A DNA stretch of 64,000 bases, from positions 14,450 through 78,449 of the forward strand of contig JAFGUF010000045.1 in assembly GCA_016938675.1 (NCBI GenBank), written 5' to 3'. This DNA is from Clostridia bacterium. Its GTDB lineage: Bacteria > Bacillota > Clostridia > Christensenellales > UMGS416. The stretch's first letter is position 1; every line of letters begins with the position of its first letter. A model generated the notes under the pieces. That model made no database searches, was not told the DNA's origin, and saw nothing but the letters and a program-made list of their open reading frames with translations. Shown piece after piece: positions 2,856 through 21,254 of this stretch. The position numbers and the translations under genes were made by a program.

Positions 2856-3128
2856 ATGTCCCAGTTACTCGAGGCCCTAATGGTGATATGCTTCGGCATT
2901 TCATGGCCGTTTTCAATTATTAAATCTATCCGATCAAAAACCGCAAAGGGCAAAAGCCTGTTTTTTATGTCATTCGTTCTTGCAGGGTATGCTTTCGGAA
3001 TAGTAAGCAAATTAGCAAGCGACAACATAACATATGTACTCTTTTTCTATATGCTGAATTTCGTGATGGTAGGTGCAGATATAGCACTATATTTTGTAAA
3101 TTCAAAAAGGGATAAATCAGAGGCTTAA
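2856..3128 (+). CDS. Small three-helix membrane protein (PQ-loop / SemiSWEET-like, tentative)
   Basis: The RBS gaggtg lies 5 nt before the ATG at 2856. The product is 90 aa with three hydrophobic helices. ISWPFSIIKSIRSKTAKGKS resembles a PQ-loop type motif. Confidence 0.45.
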   Translation: MSQLLEALMVICFGISWPFSIIKSIRSKTAKGKSLFFMSFVLAGYAFGIVSKLASDNITYVLFFYMLNFVMVGADIALYFVNSKRDKSEA

Positions 3129-4042
3129 ATTTTATTGCCTGCAGTAAATATTACGAGATATTGCCTACGGTCATCAAATGGCCAGATGCAGTACCTTTCG
3201 CTAGTAATATCTAGGCTTTGCTTTATGTTATCCAGCCCCAGCAAAGCAAGCTCGGAATAATTTTCTTTTAAGTAATCCTTAATATATTGCTTGTTTTCAA
3301 TGCTCTCTTTCATGCGCTCCGCCAAGCTAAAATCTGTTATTTCCAGAATATCTGTAAGTACAATTACTTTTCCTCCGCTTTTTACCTTTGATAAGATCAG
3401 TTTATTATATCTCTCTATTATTGCAGGCATAATATTATACATTTCATTCAATATTCCGTTTAGTGCATCCAATGGATAAATACCGTAATCATATAGTATC
3501 CTTAAAAGAGCTTCCATCTGCGTGAATGCTATCTGTGTGTAGGTCGGCAGAACGATAACTGTATCGTACGTATCTTTTTTGTACGTCCGTATTTCTATTT
3601 TTTCAAAACTGCTGATAATATTCTTAATATATTTTACTATTTCTTTTTCGTCAGCTTTTCTGCTCGCCATCTTAGAAAGATTCTCAAAAAATCTTGCCTC
3701 TTCGAGGCCGCTGTAGTCCAGCCGCTGTTTTGATAATTTAGCTTCCTTATCTTTATCTAATTGCTGTCTCGTGATGCCATCTGTGATGCTAAATAAATCA
3801 ATGTCGCTAAGTACAACGCTGTCAAATACTGACGCTAAAAAGGCTAGGTCAATATCGTTGCATTCGCCTGCGCCGAAAACAAATAAGGAATTAGTCTCTC
3901 CATTATTTATGTTATCAGAAATAAACCGTGCAACATCAGCCCGATAGGATTGCCACCCGGCATACTTGCTCTGAGGGTTTCCACTGCTATTTACATCTAT
4001 ATTGAATTTTTCAATTGAAAAGTTTTTTATCTTAAAGTCCAT
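3125..4042 (-). CDS. Hypothetical protein with class-I SAM-methyltransferase-like motifs
   Basis: The RBS gaggaa precedes the ATG at 4042 (MDFKIKNF...). LFVFGAGECNDIDL is motif-I-like, VVLSDID supplies the acidic end of beta-2, and DTVIVLPTY and GGKVIVLTD resemble later motifs. The function is not established. Confidence 0.5.
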   Translation of the reverse strand: MDFKIKNFSIEKFNIDVNSSGNPQSKYAGWQSYRADVARFISDNINNGETNSLFVFGAGECNDIDLAFLASVFDSVVLSDIDLFSITDGITRQQLDKDKEAKLSKQRLDYSGLEEARFFENLSKMASRKADEKEIVKYIKNIISSFEKIEIRTYKKDTYDTVIVLPTYTQIAFTQMEALLRILYDYGIYPLDALNGILNEMYNIMPAIIERYNKLILSKVKSGGKVIVLTDILEITDFSLAERMKESIENKQYIKDYLKENYSELALLGLDNIKQSLDITSERYCIWPFDDRRQYLVIFTAGNKI

Positions 4043-4090
4043 ATTATTCCTCACCCATGATGATTGTACCAAATACTTTATCTTAATGCA

Positions 4091-4119
4091 AAAAGAAAGC
4101 CTGCCTATATGGCAGACTT
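4091..4119 (-). terminator. Terminator closing the Mrp/Nuo-like operon
   Basis: Minus strand reads aagtctgcc-atata-ggcaggctt, a 9-bp stem with one mismatch, followed by tctttttgc. It lies 16 nt after the stop at 4135. Confidence 0.6.
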
Positions 4120-4134
4120 TCCAGCAAATTAATT

Positions 4135-5970
4135 CTAGCTTTTCTTTTTGTTTTTTCTCAAATACTCATCAATGCCTATCGCAGCATCATGCCCATTGGC
4201 TACGCCGTTTATAATATCCATTCCTTTGATGATATCTCCGCCTGCAAACAGCCACGGCACTCCTGCAACCTGTCCGTTTTTGTTCGTCTTTATCTTGCCT
4301 CGCTCTATCTGCATCTGGCTCTGCACTTCATCAGGAATGTAGGTAAAGTCCGGCATCTGTCCGATTGCAAGGTATACCTGATCAGCCTCTAAAACCTGTC
4401 TTGCATCGAAATCAAATTGAGGATTGAACCTGTGGTTTTCATCAAAGAGCTGTGTGCACTCGCAAACCTCCACGCCCTTTACATTTCCTGTTTTTTCATC
4501 CACAACGATTTTCTGCGGGCCGCAGGCGAGGTTGAATTTGATGCCTTCTTCTGTTCCTTCCTCAATTTCCTCAATATCGGCTGGAATCTGCTGCCTGTTT
4601 TCAAGAGCTGCCATCATAACGTCGGATTTGCCGTATTTCATGTTCTGCAGGCGCACAAGCGTCCTTGCAACGTCGAATGCAACGTTTCCTGAGCCGATAA
4701 CTACGACCTTTTCCTTTATTTCTGGCATTTTCGCGCTTCCTCTTTCGAAGTCTGCCGAATCTGCGAGGAACGGCATCGCCATAATTACATCCTTGTTGTC
4801 AACGCCGGGGATATTTAAAGGTCTTGTATCTGGATATCCAGTCGCAATGAACACAGCATCGTGTGTGCTCTTTAATTTATCCATCGTAATGTCTTTCCCG
4901 ACGTCTGTATTCGTGTGTATTTTCACACCGAGCTTCTCTATGAATGAAATATCCCTGTTTGTAATGTCATCCGGCAGCCTGTACTTTGGCGCACCGTATC
5001 TCATCGGGCCGCCTGCCTGAGCCTTTCTTTCGTATACATCTACTTCATAGCCCAATGTGCTGAGGTAATAGGCCGCTGATAGCCCTGCGGAGCCTGAGCC
5101 CACTATGGCCACCTTGCCGTCACCTTTTTTAGATACCTGAGAGAGAACTACCTTTTCGTACTCATCATCGGGCACATTGTCCACGATGTATCGTTTCAGC
5201 CATCTTATTGCTACAGCGTCGCCTCTTTGGGATATGGCGCACGCGCCTTCGCACTTGTGTGTACATATTCTGCCGCACACAGACGGCAGCGGATTCGTTT
5301 TGTATAGGTAGTCAACGCCTTCTGAAAGATTGTCATTCCATACTGACCTGATATATTCCGGTATGTTCATATGTGCGGGGCATGTCTTTGTGCATATTTC
5401 GCATGCAACACACCTTGAAGCCTCTGCAATGGCCTGCTCCTTGGAAAAACCTCTGACTATTTCAATAAATGAGCCTTTTCTCTCGTCCTCGCCGACGTGT
5501 TCCATATGCTTTCTTTCAAGGTCTAGCAAGTCTGATGTCTCATCTTTTACATAGCCTAATTTAATTGGTTTCCCCGTAATGCCCTTTTCAGTAGGCATGT
5601 AGTAGAAGTCCTCAGGGTCTGACGAATTAAGCAGGTATTCCTTTGTAAGGCTTAATGAGCCTGATGTACATATATCTACGCATAGTGCGCAGAAACAGCA
5701 CCTGCCGTAGTCTATTACCGGGCGCTCCGGCTTGGAGCCCTCTTCATCGGCTACATCACTGCGCTCTACCATGGTTATAGCATTGGTCGGGCACACTTCA
5801 GAGCATGTGCCGCATCCTATGCACTTTGCCCAGTCGTTTATGTGGAAGCCCCTGTAATTGTCCTGTGATTCTCTGGGATTCTTGAATATATCATCCATAG
5901 CCACAGTAACAGGCTTTTTAAATAAGTATTTCCAGCCCTTGAAAGGCGCTAAAATGCTCTTTTTATCCAT
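4135..5970 (-). CDS. Fusion protein: NuoI/MbxN-type 2x[4Fe-4S] ferredoxin module + GltD/NfnB/SudA-type FeS-FAD-NAD(P)H oxidoreductase
   Basis: The N-terminal ~115 aa contain CIGCGTCSEVCP and CCFCALCVDICT, and the N-terminus looks NuoI-like (KGWKYLFKKPVT). GltD-type Cys clusters follow (RCVACEICTKTCP and CGRICTHKCEGAC). Two dinucleotide folds are present (VAIVGSGSAGLSAAYYL and VVVIGSGNVAFDVA), along with a C-terminal AGGD motif. Confidence 0.8.
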   Translation of the reverse strand: MDKKSILAPFKGWKYLFKKPVTVAMDDIFKNPRESQDNYRGFHINDWAKCIGCGTCSEVCPTNAITMVERSDVADEEGSKPERPVIDYGRCCFCALCVDICTSGSLSLTKEYLLNSSDPEDFYYMPTEKGITGKPIKLGYVKDETSDLLDLERKHMEHVGEDERKGSFIEIVRGFSKEQAIAEASRCVACEICTKTCPAHMNIPEYIRSVWNDNLSEGVDYLYKTNPLPSVCGRICTHKCEGACAISQRGDAVAIRWLKRYIVDNVPDDEYEKVVLSQVSKKGDGKVAIVGSGSAGLSAAYYLSTLGYEVDVYERKAQAGGPMRYGAPKYRLPDDITNRDISFIEKLGVKIHTNTDVGKDITMDKLKSTHDAVFIATGYPDTRPLNIPGVDNKDVIMAMPFLADSADFERGSAKMPEIKEKVVVIGSGNVAFDVARTLVRLQNMKYGKSDVMMAALENRQQIPADIEEIEEGTEEGIKFNLACGPQKIVVDEKTGNVKGVEVCECTQLFDENHRFNPQFDFDARQVLEADQVYLAIGQMPDFTYIPDEVQSQMQIERGKIKTNKNGQVAGVPWLFAGGDIIKGMDIINGVANGHDAAIGIDEYLRKNKKKS

Positions 5971-5984
5971 ATTCTAAATCCCTC

Positions 5985-7091
5985 CTATCTGTCGATTTCC
6001 GGCGAGCAGATGCCCATCGTGTCAAACCAGAGCGGTGCGTCGTCAATTCTGTGCCCCGGCATGTATTTCTCAACGCCCAATAGCCCTTGCGGGAATGATG
6101 CTCCTCGCACCGCTACCCTGTATGGCATTGTGTTTCCGTCAGATACGGTGTAGTATCCGTATTCACCGCGGCTTGCTTCCACTGCGCTGTATACCTGTCC
6201 TGCAGGGACACGCCACCTTAGTGCGCTGCCGTCTGCTACTTTGGCTCTTACTTTGCCGCCCGGCATCATGTCAATAGCCTGCTTGATTATGTTTATGCTC
6301 TGGTACATCTCCTGATACTTAAGTGTCATTCTGGTCTGTGCGTCCGAATATGTAGCTGTCGGCACCTTGAAGTCAACTTTTTCGTATCTTGCGTACGGAG
6401 CCACTTTTCTTATGTCGTATTCCTGTCCGGTTGCTGACCTCATGCCTATTCCGGTTACGCCCAGCTCCCATACAACCTCTGCAGGTAGCAGAATGTTGTC
6501 AACCGTACGTGCGCGGACTGTTGGATTGTTCAATACCAGGTCTTCGTATTCAGGCAGCCTGCTTTCAAGGTCATTCAAAAAGTCGAGTATTTTGTTTTCA
6601 ATTCCTTTTGGCAGATCCTTGCGAACTCCGCCTGCCACTATATACATGTGGTATACTCTATGGCCTGTAATTTCTTCAAATATTGTGAGTATGCGGTCTC
6701 TGTCGGCCTGTGCCCAGTACATTGCAGTGTAGAGCCCTGTAGGGCCTCCTATTCCGCCAAATGCCATAAGGTGAGCAGAAAGCCTTGCAAGCTCTAATAT
6801 TATCATGCGAATCCAGTGGGCACGCTCCGGCACCTTTATCTTGGCCAGTGCTTCAATATTCATGGCATAGACCATTTCGTTTGTGTCCGGTTCAGGCACG
6901 CATATCCTTGGGATGAGGGCGATGTTGTTCATCCATGTGCGCCTCTCCATAGATTTTTCGAATCCCCTGTGAAGCATTCCCGGCAATAGGTAAGACCTTT
7001 TGATTATGTCACCTTCCACATACATATGGACACTGGCGTTTCCGTGCATTCCCGGGTGCTGAGGGCCTAAGAATAATTTTATCTCTTTCAT
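5985..7091 (-). CDS. NuoD / group-4 [NiFe]-hydrogenase large-subunit homolog lacking two of the four Ni-Fe cysteines (Mbx/Mbs-L-like)
   Basis: GPQHPGMHG and LHRGFEK are NuoD/HycE signatures. The N-terminal motif reads RICVPE (C64..E67) instead of RxCGxC. The C-terminal motif reads ICSPEIDR (C362..E365) instead of PCxxCxDR. Confidence 0.85.
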   Translation of the reverse strand: MKEIKLFLGPQHPGMHGNASVHMYVEGDIIKRSYLLPGMLHRGFEKSMERRTWMNNIALIPRICVPEPDTNEMVYAMNIEALAKIKVPERAHWIRMIILELARLSAHLMAFGGIGGPTGLYTAMYWAQADRDRILTIFEEITGHRVYHMYIVAGGVRKDLPKGIENKILDFLNDLESRLPEYEDLVLNNPTVRARTVDNILLPAEVVWELGVTGIGMRSATGQEYDIRKVAPYARYEKVDFKVPTATYSDAQTRMTLKYQEMYQSINIIKQAIDMMPGGKVRAKVADGSALRWRVPAGQVYSAVEASRGEYGYYTVSDGNTMPYRVAVRGASFPQGLLGVEKYMPGHRIDDAPLWFDTMGICSPEIDR

Positions 7092-7612
7092 TTCTTATCA
7101 CCTGCCTTGCTGAAGTCTGCAGCATACTCCCTAACCGGATATTTCCTGTCGGAATAGGCCTTTGAATCAAAGTCCTTGCGCAGCGGTGGCATATCGTCCC
7201 AATTTTCAAGAAAGAGCTGCTTATATGAATCCGGGTTGCCTTCAAACTCCACTCCGAAAAATTCGTGAACGTCTCTTTCGTAGTATTTCGCTCCGGGATA
7301 TATGCTGGTGACTGTTGTAAATTTCGGGTTAGACCTGTCTATTCTTGTGCGCACCTGCAGCCTTATGCCTGTCTCCCAGTTAAATACTATGTACACCAGC
7401 TGGAATTGGTTGTCCTTAATCCAGTCTACGCAGGAAAGGATAGACAGCTGCCTGAAGCCCTGCGACTTAACATATGCCAGAACAGAATGAATATCTCTCG
7501 AATTAAAATCCAATGCTGCCTGGTCATCTTTAGGGTAATCTTCGCCCACAAGCTCAAACCTTGATTTAATATCTGCAACTAAATTTTTAATATCTTTATT
7601 CATGGAACTCAT
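7088..7612 (-). CDS. NuoC (30-kDa subunit)-like
   Basis: YERDVHEFFGVEFEGNPD matches the NuoC ERE..DmfGi.F.gHP signature. The gene overlaps both neighbours. Confidence 0.85.
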   Translation of the reverse strand: MSSMNKDIKNLVADIKSRFELVGEDYPKDDQAALDFNSRDIHSVLAYVKSQGFRQLSILSCVDWIKDNQFQLVYIVFNWETGIRLQVRTRIDRSNPKFTTVTSIYPGAKYYERDVHEFFGVEFEGNPDSYKQLFLENWDDMPPLRKDFDSKAYSDRKYPVREYAADFSKAGDKK

Positions 7613-8156
7613 CCTTTATCCGCAATTCTCCAAGGGCCTGTATCTGGTTTTTTCTGTACCAGTCCTTGTTTTGCTCGTACTTTTTCCATCCGTTTGCTTC
7701 CTTGCGCTTAATCATGCCGATAAGGTCGTTGAAGCCGTTCATTACAGCCTCTGGCTTTGGCATGCAGCCTGCTATATAAACATCTATTGGAAGATACTGA
7801 TCCAGCCTGTTTATTACGGCATGAGAATCGTAGTATATTCCTCCGTTTAATGTGCATGGCCCGAAAGCAACCAGATATTTCGGAGTTGACATCTGTTCAT
7901 AGGCGTATATTATGCGCCTTAAGGTTTTAAGGCTTAGATATCCTGTAATTAGTAAAACGTCTGCCTGCCTAGGGGTGGCCATCGGGCCCATGCCCAGACG
8001 CTCCATATCATACCTAGATGTCATTGCCTGAGGCAGCTCTATTGCGCAGCAGCCTGTGCAGTACATCAGCATCCATATGGAATTTGCTCTGAAAAACCTG
8101 GAGATTCCATCCCAGCCTTTTCTTATGTTTTCTTGTTTTTCTACGGTATTATCCAT
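7596..8156 (-). CDS. NuoB (PSST) / hydrogenase small-subunit-like, [4Fe-4S] N2-type
   Basis: It contains CTGCCAIE, DVLLITG, GPCTLNGG and YIAGCMPKPEA, which together supply all four cluster cysteines. Confidence 0.9.
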   Translation of the reverse strand: MDNTVEKQENIRKGWDGISRFFRANSIWMLMYCTGCCAIELPQAMTSRYDMERLGMGPMATPRQADVLLITGYLSLKTLRRIIYAYEQMSTPKYLVAFGPCTLNGGIYYDSHAVINRLDQYLPIDVYIAGCMPKPEAVMNGFNDLIGMIKRKEANGWKKYEQNKDWYRKNQIQALGELRIKDEFHE

Positions 8157-8159
8157 GTA

Positions 8160-9065
8160 TTATACCCCCCATCCTAGAAATACTACCATCAGAGCCTGAA
8201 CTATGGCCAGTGTAATTGGCACCTTATAGTAGAATTTGATTACTTGATCAATCTTGAATCTCGCCAGAGCGTTCGATATAAGGCTGGCTAAGATATATAC
8301 TACAAAGTATTTAGCAATAAAGCCAAATAGTGTTGTCGCGCCGCCCAAAAACAGAGTTACAAATAACGTAACTTCTATAAATGTAGCGAATTCGTGCATT
8401 ATCATAAGCATTCCCAGCTGCTTGCCGCCATATTCAACCATTGGGCCTGAGGCAATCTCCGCAGGAGCTATAAATGTCTCAAACGGCTTTTTGCCTAGCA
8501 TTCCAAGCAGCGAGATATAGGCAACTACTGTACCAATAGGCATCTTTACTAAGTTCCAAGTCATGATGCCTGATGCCTGCTGTATGGCAGCCAGCTCTGA
8601 AAGAGAACTCGTATTATGGCCGAATATTATTCCTAGGATAACTATCATAAATGGCACTTCATAGCCTACCATCTGTGTCAGGGCGCGCATAACGCCGATT
8701 CCCGCAAGAGGATTTCCTGATCCTACGGAGCTCATTGCCATGCCCAGCATTCCTACTGCCAGCAGATAAACAAAGATAAAGAAGTTGTCCATTCCGGGGA
8801 ATGCCGAGTAGCCTACTACCGGCAGGAACATAACTGTTGCCATAATGCCGCCTAATGCCATCATTACGCCAAAGTCAAATACCCATCCGTGAGTTACACC
8901 TGTTTTGCTTAATGCCTTGAAGATATCTCTGAATTGCTGGTACCATTTTGGCCCAATCCTCTTTTGGAATCTTCCGACAATTTTTCTGTTTATTCCGTCA
9001 AGTGATGTCTGCCACACAAAGGCAAACAACAATATCCCGAATCCTGTTAATATCCCTGTAATCAT
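8160..9065 (-). CDS. NuoH / HyfC / MbhM-like membrane subunit
   Basis: It is polytopic. NRKIVGRFQKRIGPKWYQ matches the NuoH ER..g..Q.R.GP signature. The start at 9065 forms an ATGA overlap with the upstream stop, so the tracked ORF is 12 codons too long. Confidence 0.85.
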   Translation of the reverse strand: MITGILTGFGILLFAFVWQTSLDGINRKIVGRFQKRIGPKWYQQFRDIFKALSKTGVTHGWVFDFGVMMALGGIMATVMFLPVVGYSAFPGMDNFFIFVYLLAVGMLGMAMSSVGSGNPLAGIGVMRALTQMVGYEVPFMIVILGIIFGHNTSSLSELAAIQQASGIMTWNLVKMPIGTVVAYISLLGMLGKKPFETFIAPAEIASGPMVEYGGKQLGMLMIMHEFATFIEVTLFVTLFLGGATTLFGFIAKYFVVYILASLISNALARFKIDQVIKFYYKVPITLAIVQALMVVFLGWGV

Positions 9066-10909
9066 AAGCTGCCTCCCCACAATAGAGCTATTACCGCGCA
9101 AACCATCCAGAACACTATAATCCGCGGCTTATTGTTGAAGAATGTGTAGCTTACCAATTGTCCTGCTTCCTCAATCTTCTTTATAAGCGCTGCGTACCAC
9201 TTTTCTGTTGAAGGAGCATTCTCATACAGCCTTTCAAACGGAGCGTAGAAAGCATATGAGTAATGCAGAAGTTCCGGGGTGTATATAAACTCTGAAGCTG
9301 TGTATGTGTCCATCAAGTCTACTTTTCTTGATTTCGGATGGATTATGAAAATTATCAAAGCGATAAAGAAACCTATTCCGAAGATCAATGAAACCAATGA
9401 AGGGTTGAGTTGTCCGTTAGTTCCCGATATTACGAGCCCGTTAAGTGTAAGTCCGTCAAGCCCTGCTGTCTTTAATATATCACTGATGAATCTAAGCACT
9501 ATATTAGGGAATACTCCGAATAATAATGTCAGCAGAGAAAGGCCTATCATCGGCACCTGCATAAGGAACGGAGCTTCCTTCACGCTTTCATGCTTCGGCG
9601 AAAGCTGACCCAAAAATACTGCGCTCAAAGGCCTGAATACATAAAGGAACGAACCAATGCTTCCGAAGAATGCTGCAGCTGCAGTAAATACCATTCCCTT
9701 TCCTATCATTGACTGAAAGAGCATCCACTTGGATATAAACCCGCTCATTGGCGGAATGCCTGCCATTGATATGATTGCTATCAGGTAGACAAGGTATGTG
9801 AGGGGCATTCTGTGAATAAGTCCGCCCAGCTCGCTCATCTTGGTTGTTCCTGTTCTGTGCACCACAGCAGCTGCTGACAAAAACGCCGCTGCCGAAGCCA
9901 GAGCGTGAGCGAACATATGCATAAACGCTCCGCCTACGCTTAGTGAGTCAGCAATCGCTATTCCTATTATTATGTATCCGCCGTTTGCAACGGATGAATA
10001 GGCAATCAGTTTTTTAAAGTCTTCTGATTTTATGGCCATCAGTGTTCCTACTACTATACTTACAGCTCCCAGGAACACCAGAATATAGTTAGGTACAGGC
10101 ATTGCAAGCTCTCTGCCTAAAAACAGCGCATTAGAAGCAAACACCTTATAGGAGGGCATCACTATTACTGCAAGAAATGCCGCGAATCCGCCTGCCTTTA
10201 CCAATCCGCCTGAAAGTATCGGCGAGAATGTATCCGGAGCGTTGCCGTGCGCTTTAGGAAGCCACAGATGGAACGGAAATACGCCTATTTTCACAAGCCC
10301 CGCTATACCTATTGTTATGAACGCTACCAGCGCATATGTCGTGTTCATTGACGCCTGCTCAAGAACATACTGAATATCAAATGAACCTGTCTTTGAGTAA
10401 AGATACAGTATGCCAAAGAGCATGCTTAACGATCCGAATGCACTGAACGCGTAGTAGACAACGGATGCATTTCTGGATTTTCCGAATGGGATAATAAACA
10501 TTGAAGCCCACACTATTGTTTCCCAGAAAATGAACAGTCCAATAAAGTCCTTCGCTGTAAAAGCGCCTACCGTGCCTGCCAGTGCAACCAGGTAGAGAAA
10601 GTTATATGCCGCCGGATGAATAATCTTCTTCATCCAATACAGATTGAAAAATGACACGCTGAAAAATATAAGCAGCATCAGAACGGAGAAAAACCATCCG
10701 TAGTCTGTAAGCTTAAAGCCTAGAGCCCCAAGGCTCTGTACGCTGTTTATATCGCCTTTAAGCATAAGCATCGCAGCCAGAGCGGCGCCGGAGCCTAATA
10801 CTGTAATCAGTGCGCCCAGAATTTTATTTGCCTTAGTTAGCAAATATGCCAGCACAGCAGCCGCAAACAGGCCAACTACTATTGCCGGAACGCTTAAAAT
10901 AAAATCCAT
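9062..10909 (-). CDS. MrpA/MrpD / NuoL-type antiporter-like subunit (second copy, MbxH'-like)
   Basis: 615 aa and polytopic. It carries the proton-antiporter signature FHLWLPKAHGNAPDTFSPILSGGLVKAG. Confidence 0.85.
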   Translation of the reverse strand: MDFILSVPAIVVGLFAAAVLAYLLTKANKILGALITVLGSGAALAAMLMLKGDINSVQSLGALGFKLTDYGWFFSVLMLLIFFSVSFFNLYWMKKIIHPAAYNFLYLVALAGTVGAFTAKDFIGLFIFWETIVWASMFIIPFGKSRNASVVYYAFSAFGSLSMLFGILYLYSKTGSFDIQYVLEQASMNTTYALVAFITIGIAGLVKIGVFPFHLWLPKAHGNAPDTFSPILSGGLVKAGGFAAFLAVIVMPSYKVFASNALFLGRELAMPVPNYILVFLGAVSIVVGTLMAIKSEDFKKLIAYSSVANGGYIIIGIAIADSLSVGGAFMHMFAHALASAAAFLSAAAVVHRTGTTKMSELGGLIHRMPLTYLVYLIAIISMAGIPPMSGFISKWMLFQSMIGKGMVFTAAAAFFGSIGSFLYVFRPLSAVFLGQLSPKHESVKEAPFLMQVPMIGLSLLTLLFGVFPNIVLRFISDILKTAGLDGLTLNGLVISGTNGQLNPSLVSLIFGIGFFIALIIFIIHPKSRKVDLMDTYTASEFIYTPELLHYSYAFYAPFERLYENAPSTEKWYAALIKKIEEAGQLVSYTFFNNKPRIIVFWMVCAVIALLWGGSL

Positions 10910-12355
10910 TTAAACACCTCCTAAGCCGTCTGTCAGAAATGATAATATATCAAAGTTAAACCAATCGTTCATCTGAAGCAGAGGCAGAATACCTGCTGCT
11001 ACTATGGCAATTGCCGCAATAGTAATTATGATTGTAAGCCTTACCTTATTAGTAAGCTTATATTGCTTTGCGTCCTCTGCCTTTGCTAGTTCGCCCTCTT
11101 CACCTGTGTTCCAGAGAGTTGTGAGCATCCTTACCACATATGCTCCCTCTATTACGCTAACAATTAATATAACCATTGGAAGCCATATATTGTTTGCTTC
11201 GAAAAGCGAAACCAGAACATTAGCTTTTGCTATAAATCCGAAAAACAAAGGAAGGCCTATAAGTGACATGGCAGCCGCTGTGAAGCCGAAGCCCAGCACT
11301 TTGTTTTTAAGAAATACTCCTTTTAGATCCTCCAGCTTGTCTGTTCCGTTGTCTTCACCTATCTTAGCAGCCAATGTAAAGAGAATCATCTTTGATATTA
11401 CGTTGTTTATTAATACCAGCAGTGCAGCGGATTTTAGCCCCTGAAGGAAAAGCGCAACAACCAGCCCTGACTGAGCTATGCTTGAAAATAAAAGTATTTC
11501 CCTTAGGTTTTTCTTTGAAAATGCCGCTATCTCCGCCAATATCAATGTGCCTACTGTAACCACCGTAAAGACAATCAGCAGAGAGTCACTCATAACAAAC
11601 AGCGAATCTATAAGCCTGCCGAAAGCAAGAAGCACTGCTGCTGAAAATGCGGAAACAATAAGTGTTCCTACAAGAGAATTCGAATCCTTAAGGACTCCTC
11701 TTGCCCATCCGCTGAAAGGCAGAAGCTTCGCCTCAACTGACAGACCTGTAAAAATCAATGCCAGAGGAAGAACCAGCGCACCGGCCACAGGATAAGAAAT
11801 AATTGCCATCCTGTTCTGAATGTCCATTATGTTAAGTGAACCGAACATATTGTATATTACCGCTATGCCGAAAAGCAGAAGACCTGAGCCCAATGTTCCC
11901 AGCACAAGATAATTGAATGTATACTTGATGTTTTTGTTCATTGTAGTCAGGATATAGGCCGCTATAGCGGATATCTCCATAAACACAAACAAATTAAATA
12001 AGTCGCCTGTTAATATGACTCCGTTAAGCGCTGCCAGCGCTACTGACAAAACCACTTCATACTTTTTGATGTACTTGCATGCCATTATTGCAATGAGTGC
12101 AAATACTACATTAAGAAGAAGTATTCCCAGCAATGAATATTCATCCAGCACCAGGCTGATGCCATATGGCGGCTTGAATCCGCCTATTTCATATATAACA
12201 GGAGATACGTAGTCATAGGCTAGTATGCCGCTTGCCGCAAGGTTAAATCCTATTGCAGCACCCAGAAAATACTTGCCGAGTTTTTTAACCAGCACTGATA
12301 AAAACGCTGCGCCTAATGGTACGGCTATTAATAATATAATAAAGCTTGTATTCAT
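10910..12355 (-). CDS. MrpD / NuoN-type antiporter-like subunit (MbxH-like)
   Basis: Polytopic. The start MNTSFIILLIAVPLG at 12355 lies one nt after the MrpC stop. It is a divergent antiporter-like core (EAKLLPFSGWARGV...). Confidence 0.8.
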   Translation of the reverse strand: MNTSFIILLIAVPLGAAFLSVLVKKLGKYFLGAAIGFNLAASGILAYDYVSPVIYEIGGFKPPYGISLVLDEYSLLGILLLNVVFALIAIMACKYIKKYEVVLSVALAALNGVILTGDLFNLFVFMEISAIAAYILTTMNKNIKYTFNYLVLGTLGSGLLLFGIAVIYNMFGSLNIMDIQNRMAIISYPVAGALVLPLALIFTGLSVEAKLLPFSGWARGVLKDSNSLVGTLIVSAFSAAVLLAFGRLIDSLFVMSDSLLIVFTVVTVGTLILAEIAAFSKKNLREILLFSSIAQSGLVVALFLQGLKSAALLVLINNVISKMILFTLAAKIGEDNGTDKLEDLKGVFLKNKVLGFGFTAAAMSLIGLPLFFGFIAKANVLVSLFEANNIWLPMVILIVSVIEGAYVVRMLTTLWNTGEEGELAKAEDAKQYKLTNKVRLTIIITIAAIAIVAAGILPLLQMNDWFNFDILSFLTDGLGGV

Positions 12356-12356
12356 A

Positions 12357-12692
12357 TTATTTACCTCCCATTTCGTCCATGTCGTATGTTCCGTACTTAT
12401 CATGCATCTTCTTAGCCAATGCAAGAGCCAAAGCTGTCACGCCGACGCCGATTACAATAGATGTAAGCACGAGAGCATGGGGAAGCGGGTCAACATAGAG
12501 CATGGCTGATGATTCGTTATTTGATGTAAGAATAGGCACAAGCCCGTCCTTAACAAATCCTATTGATACAATGAAAAGATTTAATCCTATTTCGAATATG
12601 TTAAGTGCCGCAATCAGCTTAATTACATTTCTCTGGCTTAATAGGCCGTATATGCCTACCAGCATCAGAACGATAGAGAAATATTGTATCAT
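12357..12692 (-). CDS. MrpC / NuoK-like subunit
   Basis: 111 aa with three TM helices. GIYGLLSQRNVIKLIAALNIFEIGLNLF is typical of MnhC/NuoK. Confidence 0.85.
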   Translation of the reverse strand: MIQYFSIVLMLVGIYGLLSQRNVIKLIAALNIFEIGLNLFIVSIGFVKDGLVPILTSNNESSAMLYVDPLPHALVLTSIVIGVGVTALALALAKKMHDKYGTYDMDEMGGK

Positions 12693-13444
12693 CCTTCCAC
12701 CTCCTCTGTAAGAAAGCCGTCAATTACTGATGAGAGCTCACTACCTACTTTAAGTCCGATAAGCATATAGACTATTGGAATAACACCTGAGCTGATAACT
12801 TCGCCGACTGTACCTGTAGGAAGGAAGTTTTGCAGGAAGTATCCCGCAAGCACAATTCCCAAAAGTCCTACAATTACGTATAGACTTCCTGCTGTGCTCT
12901 CTACTGCCTTAGCAGCTGAAAGCTTAACCCTGAATTCATCATCAGATAAATACAAAAGCAGTATTGAAGCCGCGATTATGGCTCCGCCGGGGAAGCCACC
13001 GCCGGGAGTTATGTGCCCGTGTATAAACATATAAACGCCGAAAACTACCATTATACCGAAGATTATCCTTGCACCCTGCTTCAAAATGAAGTTAGGTGCG
13101 TCTTTCAGGTTCTTTCTTTTTCTCTTTCCATTCAGCAGCAGGCCAACACCCAGTGCGGAAACGAAAAGCACAGTAACCTCGCCTAATGTATCAAACGACC
13201 TATAGTTAACAACAACCGATGTAACCATATTTGCAGAGCCGGACTCAGCATTTTGTGTCTCTCCGAATATAATTTCTTCAGTATTGCCGTTTACGCTTTT
13301 ATCAATATACTTTTCGGATACTCTGTCATCTAGGTTTACATTTCCGTATTCATTAAACTTCAATGTTTCATCTGAAAAATAGAGTGCTGAAAAAATAAGA
13401 ATTCCTATGGCAGCAACCAATAAAATAGAAACTATCTGCTTCAT
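12689..13444 (-). CDS. MrpB (MnhB-domain) subunit with N-terminal extension
   Basis: It carries the VVNYRSFDTLGEVTVLF MnhB signature. An ATGA overlap is present at both ends. Confidence 0.8.
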   Translation of the reverse strand: MKQIVSILLVAAIGILIFSALYFSDETLKFNEYGNVNLDDRVSEKYIDKSVNGNTEEIIFGETQNAESGSANMVTSVVVNYRSFDTLGEVTVLFVSALGVGLLLNGKRKRKNLKDAPNFILKQGARIIFGIMVVFGVYMFIHGHITPGGGFPGGAIIAASILLLYLSDDEFRVKLSAAKAVESTAGSLYVIVGLLGIVLAGYFLQNFLPTGTVGEVISSGVIPIVYMLIGLKVGSELSSVIDGFLTEEVEG

Positions 13445-13695
13445 GCCTTGCCACCTGCTTTCTTACCTGCGAAGAGAGTGAACACAAAAAGTGCAGTTAC
13501 AAGCCCTGAGCCTATTACAGCCTCGGTTATCGCAACATCAGGAGCTCTCATAATTACAAAGCATACAACAGCAAGCATACTCATCATTGAAAGATAAATA
13601 ACCGTATTGAAAAGCTTCTTAGCATTTAATGCCAATACGCCAAGCACTACCATCAGGCTGCCTGCAACGATTGAAATAATATCTAGTACTGTCAT
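13441..13695 (-). CDS. DUF4040 / MrpA-C-terminal / MbhD-like small membrane subunit
   Basis: 84 aa with three TM helices. It carries the RAPDVAITEAVIGSG signature. Confidence 0.7.
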   Translation of the reverse strand: MTVLDIISIVAGSLMVVLGVLALNAKKLFNTVIYLSMMSMLAVVCFVIMRAPDVAITEAVIGSGLVTALFVFTLFAGKKAGGKA

Positions 13696-14003
13696 TTCAC
13701 TTCACTCCTTTCTTCGCCTTCTTTTTTGTATTGATATGCGCCTTTTTTGTAAGCTGCCCTTGCAAGCACTGATGAGCCTACAGGGTTTGTTATGGCGATA
13801 AAGACGATAATCAAAATCAGCTTAAGCAGCCATTGGGGGTGAACAAAGCCAACACCTAAAATCAATGAGAATGCTCCCAGTGTTGTCGCCTTGGTTCCTG
13901 CCTGTATACGGTTGAATACGTCGGGCATTCTCAGCACGCCGAATCCACCAAGCAGCAGGAAAACCCCGCCTATAACCATCAAAATATTTCCTGCTATAAT
14001 CAT
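13692..14003 (-). CDS. MrpG-like subunit
   Basis: FGVLRMPDVFNRIQAGTKATTLG matches the MnhG signature. Confidence 0.75.
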   Translation of the reverse strand: MIIAGNILMVIGGVFLLLGGFGVLRMPDVFNRIQAGTKATTLGAFSLILGVGFVHPQWLLKLILIIVFIAITNPVGSSVLARAAYKKGAYQYKKEGEERSEVK

Positions 14004-14251
14004 TGTTTCCCCTCCAAAAATCTGGCGAATACAACAGTTTCAAGGAAAGAAAGTATCGCATAAGCCAAAGCTATATCCAGATACAGGCTGCTTTCCAAAA
14101 CCAGAGCAATCATAACTATTGCCGCCGTAATAATAATGTTGAGGGTATCCAGGCCAACCACTCTGTCAAAAGATGAAGGCCCAGCAATCAGCCTGATAAG
14201 AGCAAAGAGAACGCCTAAACCGATAAGAGAAAAAACTATAATATTAATCAC
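14000..14251 (-). CDS. MrpF-like subunit
   Basis: IRLIAGPSSFDRVVGLDTLN matches the MnhF signature. Confidence 0.75.
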   Translation of the reverse strand: MINIIVFSLIGLGVLFALIRLIAGPSSFDRVVGLDTLNIIITAAIVMIALVLESSLYLDIALAYAILSFLETVVFARFLEGKQ

Positions 14252-14733
14252 TTTATAATCCCTCCTAATATCTTATCAAAGTCCTTGGATATTTCCTTCT
14301 TGTACTCTTCTTCAGTGCTTCCTTTTACGTTTACCCAGTGTACCAATACATGTCCGTCCTCAACATCCAGAGAGAGTGTTCCCGGAGTCAGAGTGATGGA
14401 ATTGGCCAGTACTAATTTTCCGAAATCATTTTTGATTTCCGTCGGCACTTTCACAATGCCCGGATTGATAGGCATTTTCGGGCTTAGTACCCGGTATGCC
14501 ATGTCCAGATTGGCAATTACAAGCTTATAGATAAATACAGGTATGTATACAAATACAAACTTTAATGCTCCTAATACTATTGAAAAGCCGAAGGAATAGT
14601 TGACATACTTGGATACAATAAAAGCAAGGATTAAAGCAACTGCACCACCAAGGATAATCTCAGTTACATTGAATCCGGCAATCAGTATCCATATTGCCCA
14701 TAGAGCTAAAAATGTCGATATGCCTTTTTTCAT
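14248..14733 (-). CDS. MrpE-like subunit
   Basis: It carries the LANSITLTPGTLSLDVE MnhE signature. The start MKKGIS at 14733 is preceded by the RBS aaggaagggga. Confidence 0.75.
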   Translation of the reverse strand: MKKGISTFLALWAIWILIAGFNVTEIILGGAVALILAFIVSKYVNYSFGFSIVLGALKFVFVYIPVFIYKLVIANLDMAYRVLSPKMPINPGIVKVPTEIKNDFGKLVLANSITLTPGTLSLDVEDGHVLVHWVNVKGSTEEEYKKEISKDFDKILGGIIK

Positions 14734-14794
14734 ATGATCCCCTTCCTTTAAAATAAAATGATGTAATAAGTTCATTATTTTCCGGCGGATAAAA

Positions 14795-15091
14795 TCAATC
14801 TACCAGAACATTAACGATTTTTATTATGCGTTCATTAACCACATAATAGTTTACTTCCAATCCGCTTCTTCTGGCGTCCACAATGCCCGCTGTTCGCAGC
14901 TTAGCAAGGTGCTGAGATATGGTAGACTGCGGAAGATCCAGACAGCTTTGGATTTTGGTCACATTGCATCCTGGTTCATTTATCAGACCGTTTACAATGC
15001 AGAGCCTGATAGGATGGGCAATAGCTTTTAGCATCTCTGCCTTTTCCGTCATCTGCTCTAGTTTTTCCTTTGCGTTAATTATAGTTATCAC
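14795..15091 (-). CDS. ArsR/SmtB-family transcriptional regulator
   Basis: The winged helix-turn-helix reads AIAHPIRLCIVNGL...QSTISQHLAKLRTAGIV. Cys residues are at 31, 42 and 50, with no canonical CVC metal site. The start is ambiguous: either the GTG at 15091, which sits inside a gaggtg string, or the ATG at 15052. Confidence 0.85.
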   Translation of the reverse strand: MITIINAKEKLEQMTEKAEMLKAIAHPIRLCIVNGLINEPGCNVTKIQSCLDLPQSTISQHLAKLRTAGIVDARRSGLEVNYYVVNERIIKIVNVLVD

Positions 15092-17907: not shown

Positions 17908-18741
17908 TCAGTCGAATTTCAGGCTTATATCCAGCGCCTTAACAGAATGGGTAAGGGCTCCAATTGATATGATGTCGACTCCTGTCTTTGCTACTTCCTC
18001 AAGGTCCTTCTCGCCCATATTGCCGGAGGCTTCGATAATTGCCCTTCCTGCTGCTATTTTTACTGCTTCAGTCATTGTATTGTTATCCATATTATCTAGC
18101 ATTATTATGTCTGCACCGGCTTTGAGCGCTTCATTCAGCTGCTGTATCGTTTCAACTTCCACTTCTATTTTAAGGGTATGCGGTGCGTTCCTTCTGGCTG
18201 CCTCTACTGCCTTTGTTATGCCGCCTGCCGCCTTTATGTGATTATCCTTTATCAGCACGCCGTCTGCAAGATTAAACCTGTGGTTGGCGCCGCCGCCTGC
18301 CTTTACAGCATATTTTTCGAATACTCTTAATCCGGGAGTAGTTTTTCTTGTATCAACAATCTTCGCCTTGTATCCTGATACTTTCTGAACTGCTTCATTG
18401 GTGTTTGTTGCTATGCCGGACATCCTCTGCATCAGGTTAAGCGCCAGTCTCTCGCCCGTCAGCACGGAGGCTGCATCCCCTGAAATAGTGCCGATTATAT
18501 CACCTTTATTAACATGCTCGCCATCCTTTAAGCTGCAATTAAACTCTATACTTTTATCAGCATAATCAAAAACTGCCCTTGCTACCTCTATTCCGCATAT
18601 GATTCCCGATTCCTTGGCTATAAACCTGCCTGATATCTTAGTCCCCTCCGGTACTGTGCTCAATGTTGTGATATCACCGGTTCCTATATCCTCTTGTAAG
18701 GACCTCTTAATAAAATCCCTCATTATATCTTTATCAATCAT
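17908..18741 (-). CDS. nadC: Nicotinate-nucleotide (quinolinate) phosphoribosyltransferase
   Basis: It carries the IVDTRKTTPGLR and GGGANHRFNLADGVLIKDNH signatures. Confidence 0.9.
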   Translation of the reverse strand: MIDKDIMRDFIKRSLQEDIGTGDITTLSTVPEGTKISGRFIAKESGIICGIEVARAVFDYADKSIEFNCSLKDGEHVNKGDIIGTISGDAASVLTGERLALNLMQRMSGIATNTNEAVQKVSGYKAKIVDTRKTTPGLRVFEKYAVKAGGGANHRFNLADGVLIKDNHIKAAGGITKAVEAARRNAPHTLKIEVEVETIQQLNEALKAGADIIMLDNMDNNTMTEAVKIAAGRAIIEASGNMGEKDLEEVAKTGVDIISIGALTHSVKALDISLKFD

Positions 18742-20281: not shown

Positions 20282-20289
20282 ATTCTCCC

Positions 20290-21210: not shown

Positions 21211-21254
21211 AGTTACCTCCTTTTTTTGCTTCCATTATGTTCTTTTATACCTTG

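Follow-up and report, generated by a model that had tools for sequence, protein, structure and literature searches.

The locus and its gene content

The window, by which we mean the whole stretch of 64,000 nucleotides that was analysed, carries on its minus strand a 13-gene operon in the order mbsABCDEGHH'MJKLN. Gene order is the same in each of the 80 related loci as far as their flanks extend, and the last gene is always a fusion. In the direction of transcription, the features are:

14795..15091, minus: ArsR/SmtB-family regulator, immediately upstream of the operon; in place in 16 Clostridia-type loci
14248..14775, minus: MrpE-like subunit, MbsA homologue, first structural gene (Pfam MNHE; 6u8y_A, E 2.6e-35)
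14000..14251, minus: MrpF-like subunit, MbsB by position (operon ORF; position in related loci)
13692..14003, minus: MrpG-like subunit, MbsC by position (ORF in operon register)
13441..13695, minus: MbhD-like subunit, MbsD by position (Pfam PF13244)
12689..13444, minus: MnhB/MbhE-like subunit, MbsE homologue (6u8y_E, E 9.5e-52)
12357..12692, minus: MrpC/NuoK-like subunit, MbsG by position (Pfam Oxidored_q2; NCBIfam antiporter subunit C models)
10910..12424, minus: antiporter-like subunit, MbsH/MrpD homologue (6u8y_H, E 1.9e-50)
9062..10909, minus: antiporter-like subunit, MbsH' homologue, 615 aa (6u8y_X, E 1.3e-72)
8160..9101, minus: NuoH/MbsM membrane anchor, 313 aa, true start possibly internal (Pfam NADHdh; 6u8y_M, E 2.5e-48)
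7596..8156, minus: NuoB/MbsJ homologue, 186 aa (6u8y_J, E 3e-62; next best 2e-36)
7088..7612, minus: NuoC/MbsK homologue, 174 aa (Pfam Complex1_30kDa; 6u8y_K, E 5e-23)
5985..7091, minus: NuoD/MbsL homologue, 368 aa (best PDB match 6u8y_L, E 4e-84)
4135..5970, minus: fusion gene, 611 aa, MbsN/NuoI module plus NfnB/GltD-type FeS-flavoprotein; last operon gene
4094..4122, minus (read 4122-4094): terminator-like hairpin, 12-bp stem then T run, directly after the stop codon of the fusion gene

A promoter-like site lies at 15194-15166, upstream of the ArsR/SmtB-family gene. The MbsH/MrpD homologue is listed with a TTG start, its likely start being the ATG at about 12355. Of the 80 loci, 61 have a homologue of the MrpG-like protein at this point of the operon; in the others the locus is cut short by a contig edge.

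Given that a chain of 6U8Y is the best solved relative of every one of the nine subunits tested (A, E, H, H', M, J, K, L and N), usually by a lead of 10-40 orders of magnitude in E-value over the next structure, and that the gene order is that of the mbs operon, we consider it very probable that the complex is a bacterial member of the MBS/MBX family of Mrp-linked, complex-I-like membrane oxidoreductases, whose type enzyme is MBS, the membrane-bound sulfane-sulfur reductase of Pyrococcus furiosus (structure 6U8Y). The operon ORFs and their Pfam matches include no nuoEFG genes, and no gene for an NfnA, SudB or GltB partner was found in the operon, in the window flanks or among the 13 commonest neighbour families. 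No rnf, nfn or hydrogenase gene occurs among the 43 larger window ORFs that were given Pfam annotation; the window has about 49 candidate genes in all, and a few large ORFs, for example those at 23362-29567, lie outside the annotation.

The fusion gene is a single, widespread ORF

The sequence-only reading had described a 611-aa ORF at 4135-5970. It exists as stated; its strand, which that reading did not give, is minus, with the ATG at 5970 and the stop codon at 4135. The same reading had asked whether the ORF might be a sequencing fusion, and we find it to be continuous: contigs assembled independently from run SRR13394436 (Logan assembly) encode 599 of 599 residues identical to aa 13-611, spanning the junction. 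These contigs were reached via the neighbouring 305-aa protein, an exact contig-index look-up of the fusion protein itself giving no match. More than 120 protein clusters contain full-length fusions of about 605-615 aa. The search across genomes for the combination of a NuoI-type dicluster with a GltD-like module, which had been proposed as a check, finds a relative in at least 561 species genomes, spread over many anaerobic phyla (among 599 pattern-matching stretches listed for the species-genome collection). In the 80 loci kept from the genome scan, the match takes in approximately residues 1-604 of the query, or more, unless the contig is too short. NCBIfam devotes a full-length model to the fusion, NF010590/PRK13984, which spans it from one end to the other, the window protein scoring 911 bits against a cutoff of 946. 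Set against the independent assembly, this distribution over clusters, genomes and phyla, the full-length model and the conservation of the linker itself, the idea that adjacent nuoI and gltD genes were joined by an assembly or annotation error, for which we found no supporting evidence, has a negligible probability, and we rule it out.

Among the related loci are those of an uncultured Thermotoga sp., Fervidobacterium, Thermosipho, Kosmotogaceae and Thermotogaceae, in each of which the operon likewise ends in the fusion gene; other carriers are Christensenellaceae, Limiplasma relatives and Izemoplasmatales. The window fusion protein is 50-57% identical to the Thermotogota proteins. Neighbour families were defined by clustering the flanking genes of the 80 loci, and were judged from sequence, with Pfam annotation for part of them. 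They comprise methyltransferase-like proteins (305 aa in the window), rubrerythrin-family proteins and glutathione-peroxidase-family proteins, while no rhodanese, TusA, NSR or polysulfide-handling genes were found among the 13 commonest. The window locus has the ArsR-type regulator upstream and the methyltransferase-like neighbour, whereas the Thermotogota loci carry a rubrerythrin-family gene, which in nine of them overlaps the stop codon of the fusion gene, and a glutathione-peroxidase-family gene lies close to the operon in five Izemoplasma loci. The rubrerythrin was also remarked on by Degli Esposti 2015 (PMC4758237).

Domains, cofactor motifs and fold of the fusion protein

Within the fusion gene we distinguish four parts:

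5596..5970, minus: NuoI/MbsN module, aa 1-125, two [4Fe-4S] motifs; best solved relative 6u8y_N
5476..5595, minus: conserved linker, aa 126-165, including S146-D-L-L-D-L-E-R153 (conserved alignment columns)
5173..5475, minus: Fer4_20 domain, aa 166-266, eight Cys (Pfam PF14691, E 2e-30)
4219..5115, minus: FAD and nicotinamide-nucleotide Rossmann domains, aa 286-584 (Pyr_redox_2; alignment)

The N-terminus is matched by NCBIfam NuoI models, and its best PDB match over aa 1-125 is 6u8y_N, P. furiosus MbsN (E 2e-28), ahead of Nqo9 (4e-12) and MbhN (6e-10); Pfam places a Fer4 dicluster at 46-104, followed by Fer4_20 at 166-266 and Pyr_redox_2 at 286-584. The two NuoI-type CxxCxxCxxxCP motifs claimed earlier, which in NuoI/Nqo9 (TYKY) subunits bind clusters N6a and N6b, are both present as Cys motifs, with one correction: the first is C50IGCGTCSEVCP61 (nt 5788-5823; ligands C50, C53, C56 and C60), but the second, C91CFCALCVDIC101 (nt 5668-5700; Cys 91, 94, 97 and 101), is followed by T and thus ends in CT, not CP. 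The Fer4_20 region, which aligns with NfnI-L and NfnB, has the motifs R186CVACEICTKTCP198 and C232GRICTHKCEGAC244, whose eight Cys (C187, C190, C193, C197, C232, C236, C240 and C244) suffice for two more [4Fe-4S] clusters. The FAD site is G291xG293xxG296 with E314 (motif G291SGSAGLSAAYYL303), and the NAD site is G426xG428xxA431 with L456-E457 (motif G426SGNVAFDVA435; E457 at nt 4600-4602). None of the 16 cluster Cys, and neither of the Rossmann glycine motifs, varies among 75 homologues of 56-96% identity; A431 is kept in 74 of these, and the other residues of the FAD and NAD sites are invariant or nearly so.

The AF2 model of the fusion protein (pLDDT 88.7, pTM 0.83) gives the linker a pLDDT of 81-89 across most of its length, and its C-terminal approximately 470 residues superpose on NfnI-L, NfnB and GltD with TM 0.86-0.89 and rmsd 2.4-2.7 Å. 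Pfam and the modelled fold thus agree with the complete GltD-like module of the sequence-only reading, all of whose quoted Cys, FAD and NAD(P)H motifs are present. That reading was also right, in anatomy and in inference, that a pyridine-nucleotide flavoprotein is hard-wired to the NuoI-type entry subunit of an Mrp-type pump.

The nicotinamide site is predicted to prefer NADH

In NfnB and NfnI, YRR(T) binds the 2'-phosphate (VYRRT in NfnB); in the fusion protein it aligns to ALE(N), that is, AALEN with A455-L456-E457. Among the fusion homologues L456 is kept in 73/75 and E457 in 74/75. In one related locus, a gene that lies a few kb away from the operon encodes a NuoF-GltD fusion that retains ILYRRT, so the change from YRR to ALE is specific to the MBX fusion module. 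An acidic residue ending β2 is the classic determinant of NAD over NADP. From the replacement of YRR by the conserved ALE with Glu457, we predict that the flavoprotein module uses NADH rather than NADPH. The substitution of the NADPH-binding YRR by a conserved ALE is newly noted here; it narrows the NAD(P)H of the sequence-only reading to NADH as the predicted donor.

The NuoB/NuoD pocket

The NuoB homologue has a short C33-T-G-C36(-C37) loop, with C101 and C131 as candidate proximal-cluster ligands. In MbsJ such a shortened CxxC loop gives a proximal [4Fe-4S] cluster with three Cys ligands. As a sequence motif, CTGC is kept in 68 of 68 loci, but 42 of the 68, the window among them, have a third Cys (CTGCC), a tandem pair as in complex I. 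The only two Cys of the NuoD homologue are C64 (RICVPEPD) and C362 (GICSPEIDR), the equivalents of MbsL C85 and C385; they are kept in 72/72 and 77/77 loci, respectively, and as in MbsL two of the four NiFe Cys are lost. The NuoD homologue lacks the NiFe CxxC pairs, and its match to the Pfam family NiFeSe_Hases is below cutoff. A group 4 [NiFe] hydrogenase of the MBH/Ech type is ruled out by this absence of the NiFe ligands from the large subunit.

Conservation within the operon peaks in the NuoB and NuoD homologues, with mean identities across loci of 71% and 70%, respectively, against 57% for the fusion protein, an observation newly made here. This argues for selection on the chemistry at their pocket and for chemistry still taking place there. 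The β1-β2 loop of the NuoD homologue is GPQHPGMHGN, with His16 in 68 of 72 loci, and the corresponding loop of P. furiosus MbsL is GPQHMATENF; the loop is closer to complex I than to MbsL, which hints at a proton-requiring acceptor. In complex I quinone is bound by a His/Tyr pair of NuoD, the 49-kDa subunit; Val65, invariant in 72/72 loci, aligns with the Tyr of this pair. The CTGC loop in MbsJ and C85/C385 in MbsL are features of the MBS site, and the conserved Cys are dispensable for polysulfide reduction by MBS (PMC7684303); their conservation is therefore a family marker and not proof of the substrate.

Previous descriptions of the complex

The architecture is already catalogued and not new. 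The Mbx assignment is reportedly due to Schut et al. 2013 (FEMS Microbiol Rev), whom other authors credit with it. The sequence-only reading was unsure whether the architecture had been described; it is known through NF010590/PRK13984, through Degli Esposti 2015 (PMC4758237) and as the 13-subunit MBX of T. maritima (PMC9431562), and mbx-like operons are reported from Thermotogota and Thermoanaerobacter (PMC9431562, PMC4758237, PMC4596419). Degli Esposti 2015 (PMC4758237) described a gltD-related flavoprotein replacing NuoI in mbx-like operons of Thermotoga and proteobacteria, and read it as the site of NAD(P)+ reduction. The NuoI module that the literature calls substituted has in fact been kept and extended. 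A literature search on TM1217, MbxN and PRK13984 found nothing relevant, and apart from one paper the literature consulted on the complex is silent on the flavoprotein domain; two incompatible labels are used in papers, ferredoxin:NADP oxidoreductase and ferredoxin-dependent sulfur reductase.

Proposed function and alternatives

We propose, as a tentative reading to which we give somewhat less than an even chance, that the complex is an NADH-fed, ion-translocating reductase with sulfane sulfur as the probable acceptor. For electron flow, acceptor and ion pumping we infer the following. FAD would be reduced by NADH and not by NADPH, and electrons would move one at a time along the fusion protein's four [4Fe-4S] clusters until they reach the NuoB/MbsJ homologue and its proximal cluster. 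A small acceptor, by analogy with MBS most likely sulfane sulfur (polysulfide or organic persulfide), would be reduced in the chamber that the NuoB, NuoD and NuoH homologues enclose, and this reduction would power Na+ or H+ translocation through the Mrp module and the two antiporter-like subunits. The same chain may also accept electrons from ferredoxin. The NfnB/GltD-type module, with two [4Fe-4S] clusters, FAD and a nicotinamide site, would act as a one-polypeptide stand-in for the NuoEFG N-module.

By our estimate from textbook potentials, the step from NADH (-320 mV) to polysulfide (about -260 mV) yields little energy except at low sulfide, which makes the thermodynamics tight for ion pumping if NADH is the only donor. 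Many carriers (Christensenellaceae, Limiplasma, Izemoplasmatales) are not known to reduce sulfur, which counts against a sulfur acceptor, as do the saccharolytic character of the window host, a Clostridia MAG, and the absence of sulfur-trafficking genes from the 13 commonest neighbour families of the 80 loci; the complex-I-like His16 loop, in 68/72 loci, speaks against an MBS-like acceptor. As indirect support for sulfur, mbxA of T. maritima is induced by S0, being up 4.4-fold while the change in rnfC is insignificant (PMC9431562).

The sequence-only reading had left two possibilities, an energy-conserving ferredoxin:NAD(P)+ oxidoreductase and a nucleotide-driven reductase at the NuoB/NuoD pocket. 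Neither is proven; the evidence leans to the latter, because the pocket keeps the MBS features and its subunits are the most conserved, and because a pure ferredoxin:NAD+ route would bypass it. In that route ferredoxin would dock at the NuoI/GltD clusters and electrons would run to FAD and on to NAD+, building a Na+/H+ gradient in an Rnf-like manner, with reversal possible. The clusters homologous to those of the fusion form the ferredoxin-facing branch in Nfn, which favours this route, as do comfortable thermodynamics of about -35 kJ/mol (PMC7414866), the reading of the gltD-like subunit as a site of NAD(P)+ reduction (PMC4758237) and the labels given to bacterial Mbx in genome papers after the older Pyrococcus model. 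However, the Pyrococcus prototype, P. furiosus MBS, formerly MBX, has been reassigned from ferredoxin:NADP+ oxidoreductase to sulfane reductase (PMC7684303), and T. maritima already has a proven Na+-Rnf and Nfn beside MBX, with the S0 response in mbxA and not in rnfC (PMC9431562). Moreover, the path would skip the proximal cluster and the NuoB/NuoD/NuoH chamber, the coupling site in all complex-I-type enzymes, and yet the bypassed NuoB and NuoD subunits are the most conserved and carry MBS-specific residues. We therefore regard this route as unlikely.

We judge it similarly improbable that the complex, though NADH-driven and complex-I-like at the NuoB/NuoD pocket, is not a sulfane reductase and instead acts on menaquinone, an organic disulfide or persulfide, or peroxide or oxygen via an associated diiron protein. 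The gap between donor and acceptor potentials would then be wider than with polysulfide, and the His-bearing β1-β2 loop (68/72 loci), the lack of sulfur-trafficking neighbours among those 13 families, and the rubrerythrin-family and glutathione-peroxidase-family genes in the nine Thermotogota and five Izemoplasma loci would fit. Against it, these neighbours vary by phylum, so that none is a core partner, the invariant Val65 occupies the position of the quinone-binding Tyr, most carrier lineages are fermenters in which quinone synthesis is not known, and the complex as a whole is nearest to MBS. An Nfn, glutamate synthase or sulfide dehydrogenase proper is ruled out, there being no YRR and no partner subunit in the operon, in the window flanks or among the 13 commonest neighbour families. 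Electron bifurcation at FAD was set aside as the second acceptor branch is not encoded; because there is no such branch, a bifurcating role of the fusion module is unlikely.

Returning to the NADH-fed reductase, we further hypothesize, as a possibility about which we remain doubtful, that a "mini complex I" has arisen convergently in the fused family: one NfnB/GltD-type polypeptide would replace the three-subunit N-module, and fermenters (Christensenellaceae, Limiplasma relatives, Izemoplasmatales, Thermotogota) would use an MBS-type pocket to oxidise NADH and to pump Na+ or H+. If true, this would be an unrecognised NADH-linked respiration of sulfane sulfur, or of a related small acceptor, in hundreds of species beyond hot-vent archaea, and a dedicated methyltransferase-like factor might service the complex in Bacillota and Izemoplasmatales. 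The identity of the donor (NADH, NADPH or ferredoxin) and of the acceptor (sulfane sulfur, NAD+ or other) would alter models of energy yield for Thermotogota, Izemoplasmatales and Christensenellaceae-type fermenters, and bears on whether an NADH module other than NuoEFG can drive a complex-I-like pump. We stress that NADH preference and a retained MBS pocket are sequence-level predictions that are directly testable.

Comparison with known systems

The complex shares with P. furiosus MBS (6U8Y, PMC7684303) its 13 genes in identical order, two antiporter-like subunits with an Mrp Na+ module, the CTGC sequence motif of MbsJ, the equivalents of MbsL C85/C385 and the lack of a NiFe site. The only architectural departure is the electron-entry subunit, an MbsN/NuoI running on into a flavoprotein module: MbsN is free-standing, 208 aa long and ferredoxin-accepting, whereas the window module is fused to an NfnB/GltD-type flavoprotein of about 450 aa. 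MbsL also lacks the conserved His of the window NuoD loop, and the hosts of the fused family are bacteria, many of them mesophilic. The MBX of T. maritima and the mbx-like operons of Thermotogota belong to the same operon family with a fused last gene, from which the window copy differs in residing in a Clostridia MAG and in being 50-57% identical. Rnf possibly shares the job of Na+-coupled electron exchange between ferredoxin and NAD; it has no homology to the complex, and coexists with MBX in T. maritima (PMC9431562).

With NfnB, NfnI-L, SudA and GltD the fusion module shares the two-cluster Fer4_20 domain and the FAD and nucleotide Rossmann domains (34% identity and TM 0.88 to NfnI-L), but the window operon has no NfnA, SudB or GltB partner, YRR has become ALE, and the module is covalently tied to NuoI. 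The likeness to the N-module of complex I (NuoE, NuoF and NuoG) is one of function, hydride from NADH passing to a flavin and then along an FeS chain that ends at the NuoI and NuoB clusters. Complex I differs in that its N-module has FMN in NuoF and three polypeptides, whereas the fusion is one polypeptide of unrelated fold, an FAD-containing flavoprotein with two dinucleotide-binding domains; the window operon lacks nuoEFG, and its NuoD homologue has the His equivalent, H16, with Val65 at the Tyr position.

Architecture of the fusion protein

The sequence-only reading had described a 611-aa open reading frame joining a NuoI-type ferredoxin module to a GltD-type flavoprotein. All of the motifs it quoted are found in the translation, although the second of the two CxxCxxCxxxCP motifs reads C91CFCALCVDIC101-T and does not end in -CP. 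The gene and its Pfam domains are as follows:

4135..5970, minus strand: fusion gene, ATG at 5970, stop at 4135, 611 aa
residues 46-104: 4Fe-4S dicluster domain
residues 166-266: Fer4_20, the domain that carries two clusters in DPD, GltD and NfnB
residues 286-584: Pyr_redox_2

In NCBIfam, residues 3-130 are matched by NuoI models and residues 150-608 by GltD, NfnB and AegA models. An AlphaFold2 model built from 75 homologues is confident (pLDDT 88.7, pTM 0.83), and in its C-terminal part (~470 residues) it has the fold of P. furiosus NfnI-L, T. maritima NfnB and Azospirillum GltD, superposing with TM scores of 0.86-0.89 and root mean square deviations of 2.4-2.7 Å; a structure search with the model found no solved chain covering the whole architecture (TMq at most 0.69). 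Across the 75 sequences, none of the 16 cluster cysteines varies, nor does either Rossmann glycine motif, and the 40-residue linker between the modules is itself conserved, for example at S146DLLDLER153. The structural part of the sequence-only reading, a pyridine-nucleotide flavoprotein joined to a NuoI-type subunit, is upheld.

The fusion is genuine. A frameshift or stop in an independent assembly had been named beforehand as grounds for rejecting it; none is present, and the Logan assembly of run SRR13394436 contains the same continuous gene, agreeing at 599 of 599 residues from residue 13 through to the C terminus, junction included. More than 120 protein clusters resemble the fusion protein (600-664 aa, nearly all 600-620 aa; 93-100% query coverage, 55-96% identity), labelled as Clostridia, Saccharofermentanales, Petrotoga, Haliovirga, Mycoplasmatota and Anaerolineales. 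The proposed search for the architecture across genomes, run on one genome per species, returned at least 599 pattern-matching stretches, at least 561 of which encode a relative; among the matches listed, those nearest to the window's gene (69-75% identity) come from MAGs of Christensenellaceae, Candidatus Limiplasma and Anaerofustis.

The architecture, which had been thought possibly undescribed, is already known and catalogued, both in NCBIfam and in publications, and the window provides a further example, in a Clostridia MAG, of a widespread family. Model NF010590 (PRK13984, 'putative oxidoreductase', profile length 611) spans residues 1-608 end to end, scoring 911 bits, just below its 946-bit cutoff. 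A gltD-related flavoprotein has been noted in the mbx-like operons of Thermotoga and proteobacteria (PMC4758237); the term 'substituted', used there for NuoI, needs refining, as the NuoI module is entirely kept and lengthened, not replaced. In a 2022 study, the T. maritima cluster is treated as an MBX of 13 subunits and as a homologue of MBS, the P. furiosus membrane-bound sulfane-sulfur reductase; the study assumed ferredoxin as donor, left the flavoprotein domain undiscussed and reported mbxA to be up 4.4-fold after S0 addition (PMC9431562). In Mesotoga and Caldanaerobacter genome papers, the complex goes under the name of ferredoxin:NADP oxidoreductase, after an older Pyrococcus model. In the literature we found no fused-type complex that had been purified, assayed or solved structurally.

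Nucleotide preference

In NfnI-L, Xfn and NfnB, the 2'-phosphate of NADPH is held by two arginines. The V-Y-R-R-T sequence in which they lie, at the β2 end of NfnI-L, Xfn and T. maritima NfnB, aligns (HMMER) with A-A-L-E-N of the fusion protein, a motif that was checked in the DNA at nt 4591-4617; of 75 homologues, 73 share L456 and 74 share E457. The textbook determinant of a preference for NAD rather than NADP is an acidic residue at just this position, and on the strength of E457 we predict that the fusion protein uses NADH. Thirteen loci, in a set of 80 related loci, also encode a 1050-aa NuoE-NuoF-GltD fusion beyond the operon's 3' end, at a distance of about 1-4 kb:

locus L007, 15965-19114: representative NuoE-NuoF-GltD fusion, with thioredoxin-like 2Fe-2S, Nuo51 FMN and Fer4_20/Pyr_redox_2 domains

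Unlike the MBX-linked module, this representative retains the NADPH-type 'ILYRRT', which indicates that the change at YRR is specific to the MBX module.

Relation to MBS

The fusion gene closes an operon on the minus strand. Upstream of it lie, in order, NuoD, NuoC, NuoB and NuoH homologues and two antiporter-like subunits, followed by MrpC, MnhB/MbhE, MbhD, MrpG, MrpF and MrpE homologues. This gene order is that of mbsABCDEGHH'MJKLN, and the 13 structural genes are colinear in 80 of 80 related loci wherever the contig reaches far enough. In a search of all solved structures, the best match was a chain of MBS (PDB 6U8Y) for each of the nine operon subunits tested.

Best structural matches of operon subunits (E values)
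NuoI module: MbsN, 2e-28 (Nqo9 4e-12, MbhN 6e-10)
NuoD homologue: MbsL, 4e-84 (complex I 1e-66, MbhL 1e-38)
NuoB homologue: MbsJ, 3e-62 (next match 2e-36)
NuoH homologue: MbsM, 2.5e-48
615-aa antiporter-like subunit: MbsH', 1e-72
504-aa antiporter-like subunit: MbsH, 2e-50
NuoC homologue: MbsK, 5e-23
MnhB-like subunit: MbsE, 1e-51
MrpE-like subunit: MbsA, 3e-35

In the MBS pocket, MbsL lacks two of the four NiFe cysteines, keeping C85 and C385, and the CTGC loop of MbsJ is shortened, with the result that the proximal [4Fe-4S] cluster is held by three Cys only (PMC7684303). Only two cysteines occur in the NuoD homologue, C64 (invariant in 72 loci) and C362 (in 77), which align with C85 and C385 of MbsL, and C33-T-G-C36 of the NuoB homologue is invariant in 68 of 68 loci. 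Two features are, however, complex-I-like: the nearly invariant β1-β2 loop of the NuoD homologue, GPQHPGMHGN (residues 9-18; His16 in 68 of 72 loci) where MbsL has GPQHMATENF, and CTGCC, with an extra tandem Cys, in 42 of 68 NuoB homologues, the window's own included. By these residues, the pocket is not the same as that of archaeal MBS.

Surroundings of the operon

The operon is flanked by the following features:

3125..4072, minus strand: methyltransferase-like gene, 305 aa, just downstream of the fusion gene; probable start M11, at 4042
4122-4094, minus strand: terminator-like hairpin, 12-bp stem, 3' of the fusion gene stop codon
14795..15091, minus strand: ArsR/SmtB-family regulator adjoining the 5' end of the operon; a promoter-like site precedes the regulator

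Of 16 orthologues of the regulator that precede the operon in related loci, 15 keep its Cys30 (RLC) and Cys42 (GCNV), and there is only weak, sub-threshold similarity to PagR and the sulfite-sensing BigR; the regulator may sense redox state or sulfur through thiols. The 305-aa protein matched no Pfam or NCBIfam family. Its AlphaFold2 model (pLDDT 88.7) matches class I SAM methyltransferases only, and weakly, with GAGECND and LSDID motifs in a divergent form of that fold. A profile from its homologues places a member of its family next to the MBX operon in 36 of the 80 loci, either upstream or downstream, at a median gap of about 85 bp (L002:11882-12835, L020:398-1345 and L038:86-979, among others), and among these loci the family is confined to Bacillota and Izemoplasmatales, never Thermotogota. 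In the window the gene has its own promoter-like site and is parted from the operon by the hairpin. We regard it as a candidate accessory or assembly factor; a loose analogy is NDUFAF7, a methyltransferase acting on the NuoD homologue in complex I assembly.

In nine Thermotogota loci (L054, L064, L066, L069-L072, L075 and L076; e.g. L076:10998-11555), a rubrerythrin-family (ferritin-like diiron) gene of 167-186 aa overlaps the fusion gene stop codon as a 14th operon gene, and a glutathione-peroxidase-family gene lies nearby in five Izemoplasma-type loci; these neighbours may tie the complex to peroxide or oxygen handling. Rubrerythrin has been noted often to close the mbx-like operon (PMC4758237).

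A protein neighbouring the operon has the same sequence (100% identity) as one listed at NCBI under 'Clostridia bacterium' (locus tag JXN65_12010). At 17908..23104, on the minus strand, is an NAD biosynthesis cluster of NadC, NadB and NadA, after which come a lipoate-protein ligase and a radical-SAM protein. The window further encodes, 37 kb from the operon (43018..44361, plus strand), a 447-aa pyridine-nucleotide-disulfide oxidoreductase of the CoA-disulfide-reductase/NADH-oxidase family, scoring below equivalog cutoffs; NSR, a cytoplasmic sulfur reductase that uses NAD(P)H, reportedly belongs to this family. Many glycoside hydrolases (GH88, GH43, GH38) and MFS sugar transporters occupy the remainder, which fits a saccharolytic fermenter as host.

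Electron path and acceptor

The cofactor inventory suggests a single plausible electron wire, which would run from FAD through the two GltD-type and the two NuoI-type [4Fe-4S] clusters to the proximal cluster of the NuoB homologue, and end in the chamber at the NuoB/NuoD/NuoH interface. Mean identity is highest in the NuoB (71%) and NuoD (70%) homologues, the fusion protein reaching 57% and the membrane subunits 42-66%; from this and the retained MBS-specific residues, we think that chemistry still takes place in the NuoB/NuoD chamber. We therefore lean, with slightly less than even confidence, towards an NADH-fed, ion-translocating reductase whose acceptor would most probably be sulfane sulfur, with ferredoxin as a possible additional donor. 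Several points weaken the sulfane-sulfur assignment: NADH and polysulfide lie close together in potential as long as sulfide is not scavenged, sulfur reduction is not known from many of the hosts, clustering of flanking genes across the 80 loci found no sulfur-trafficking partners among the 13 commonest neighbour families, and the conserved His in the NuoD-homologue loop hints at a proton-consuming acceptor.

An Rnf-like ferredoxin:NAD+ oxidoreductase, the traditional assignment, is thermodynamically attractive, but we consider it unlikely: the coupling site would be bypassed, the conservation of the pocket would be left without explanation, and the activity would be redundant with Rnf in T. 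maritima. We give a similarly low probability to a different acceptor, be it a quinone, an organic disulfide or persulfide, or peroxide via the rubrerythrin-family neighbour; Val65 of the NuoD homologue, invariant in 72 of 72 loci, aligns with the quinone-binding Tyr position of complex I. A small remaining share of probability we assign to none of these readings. The proposed wire is built like that of complex I, except that a single, unrelated flavoprotein takes the place of the three-subunit N-module.
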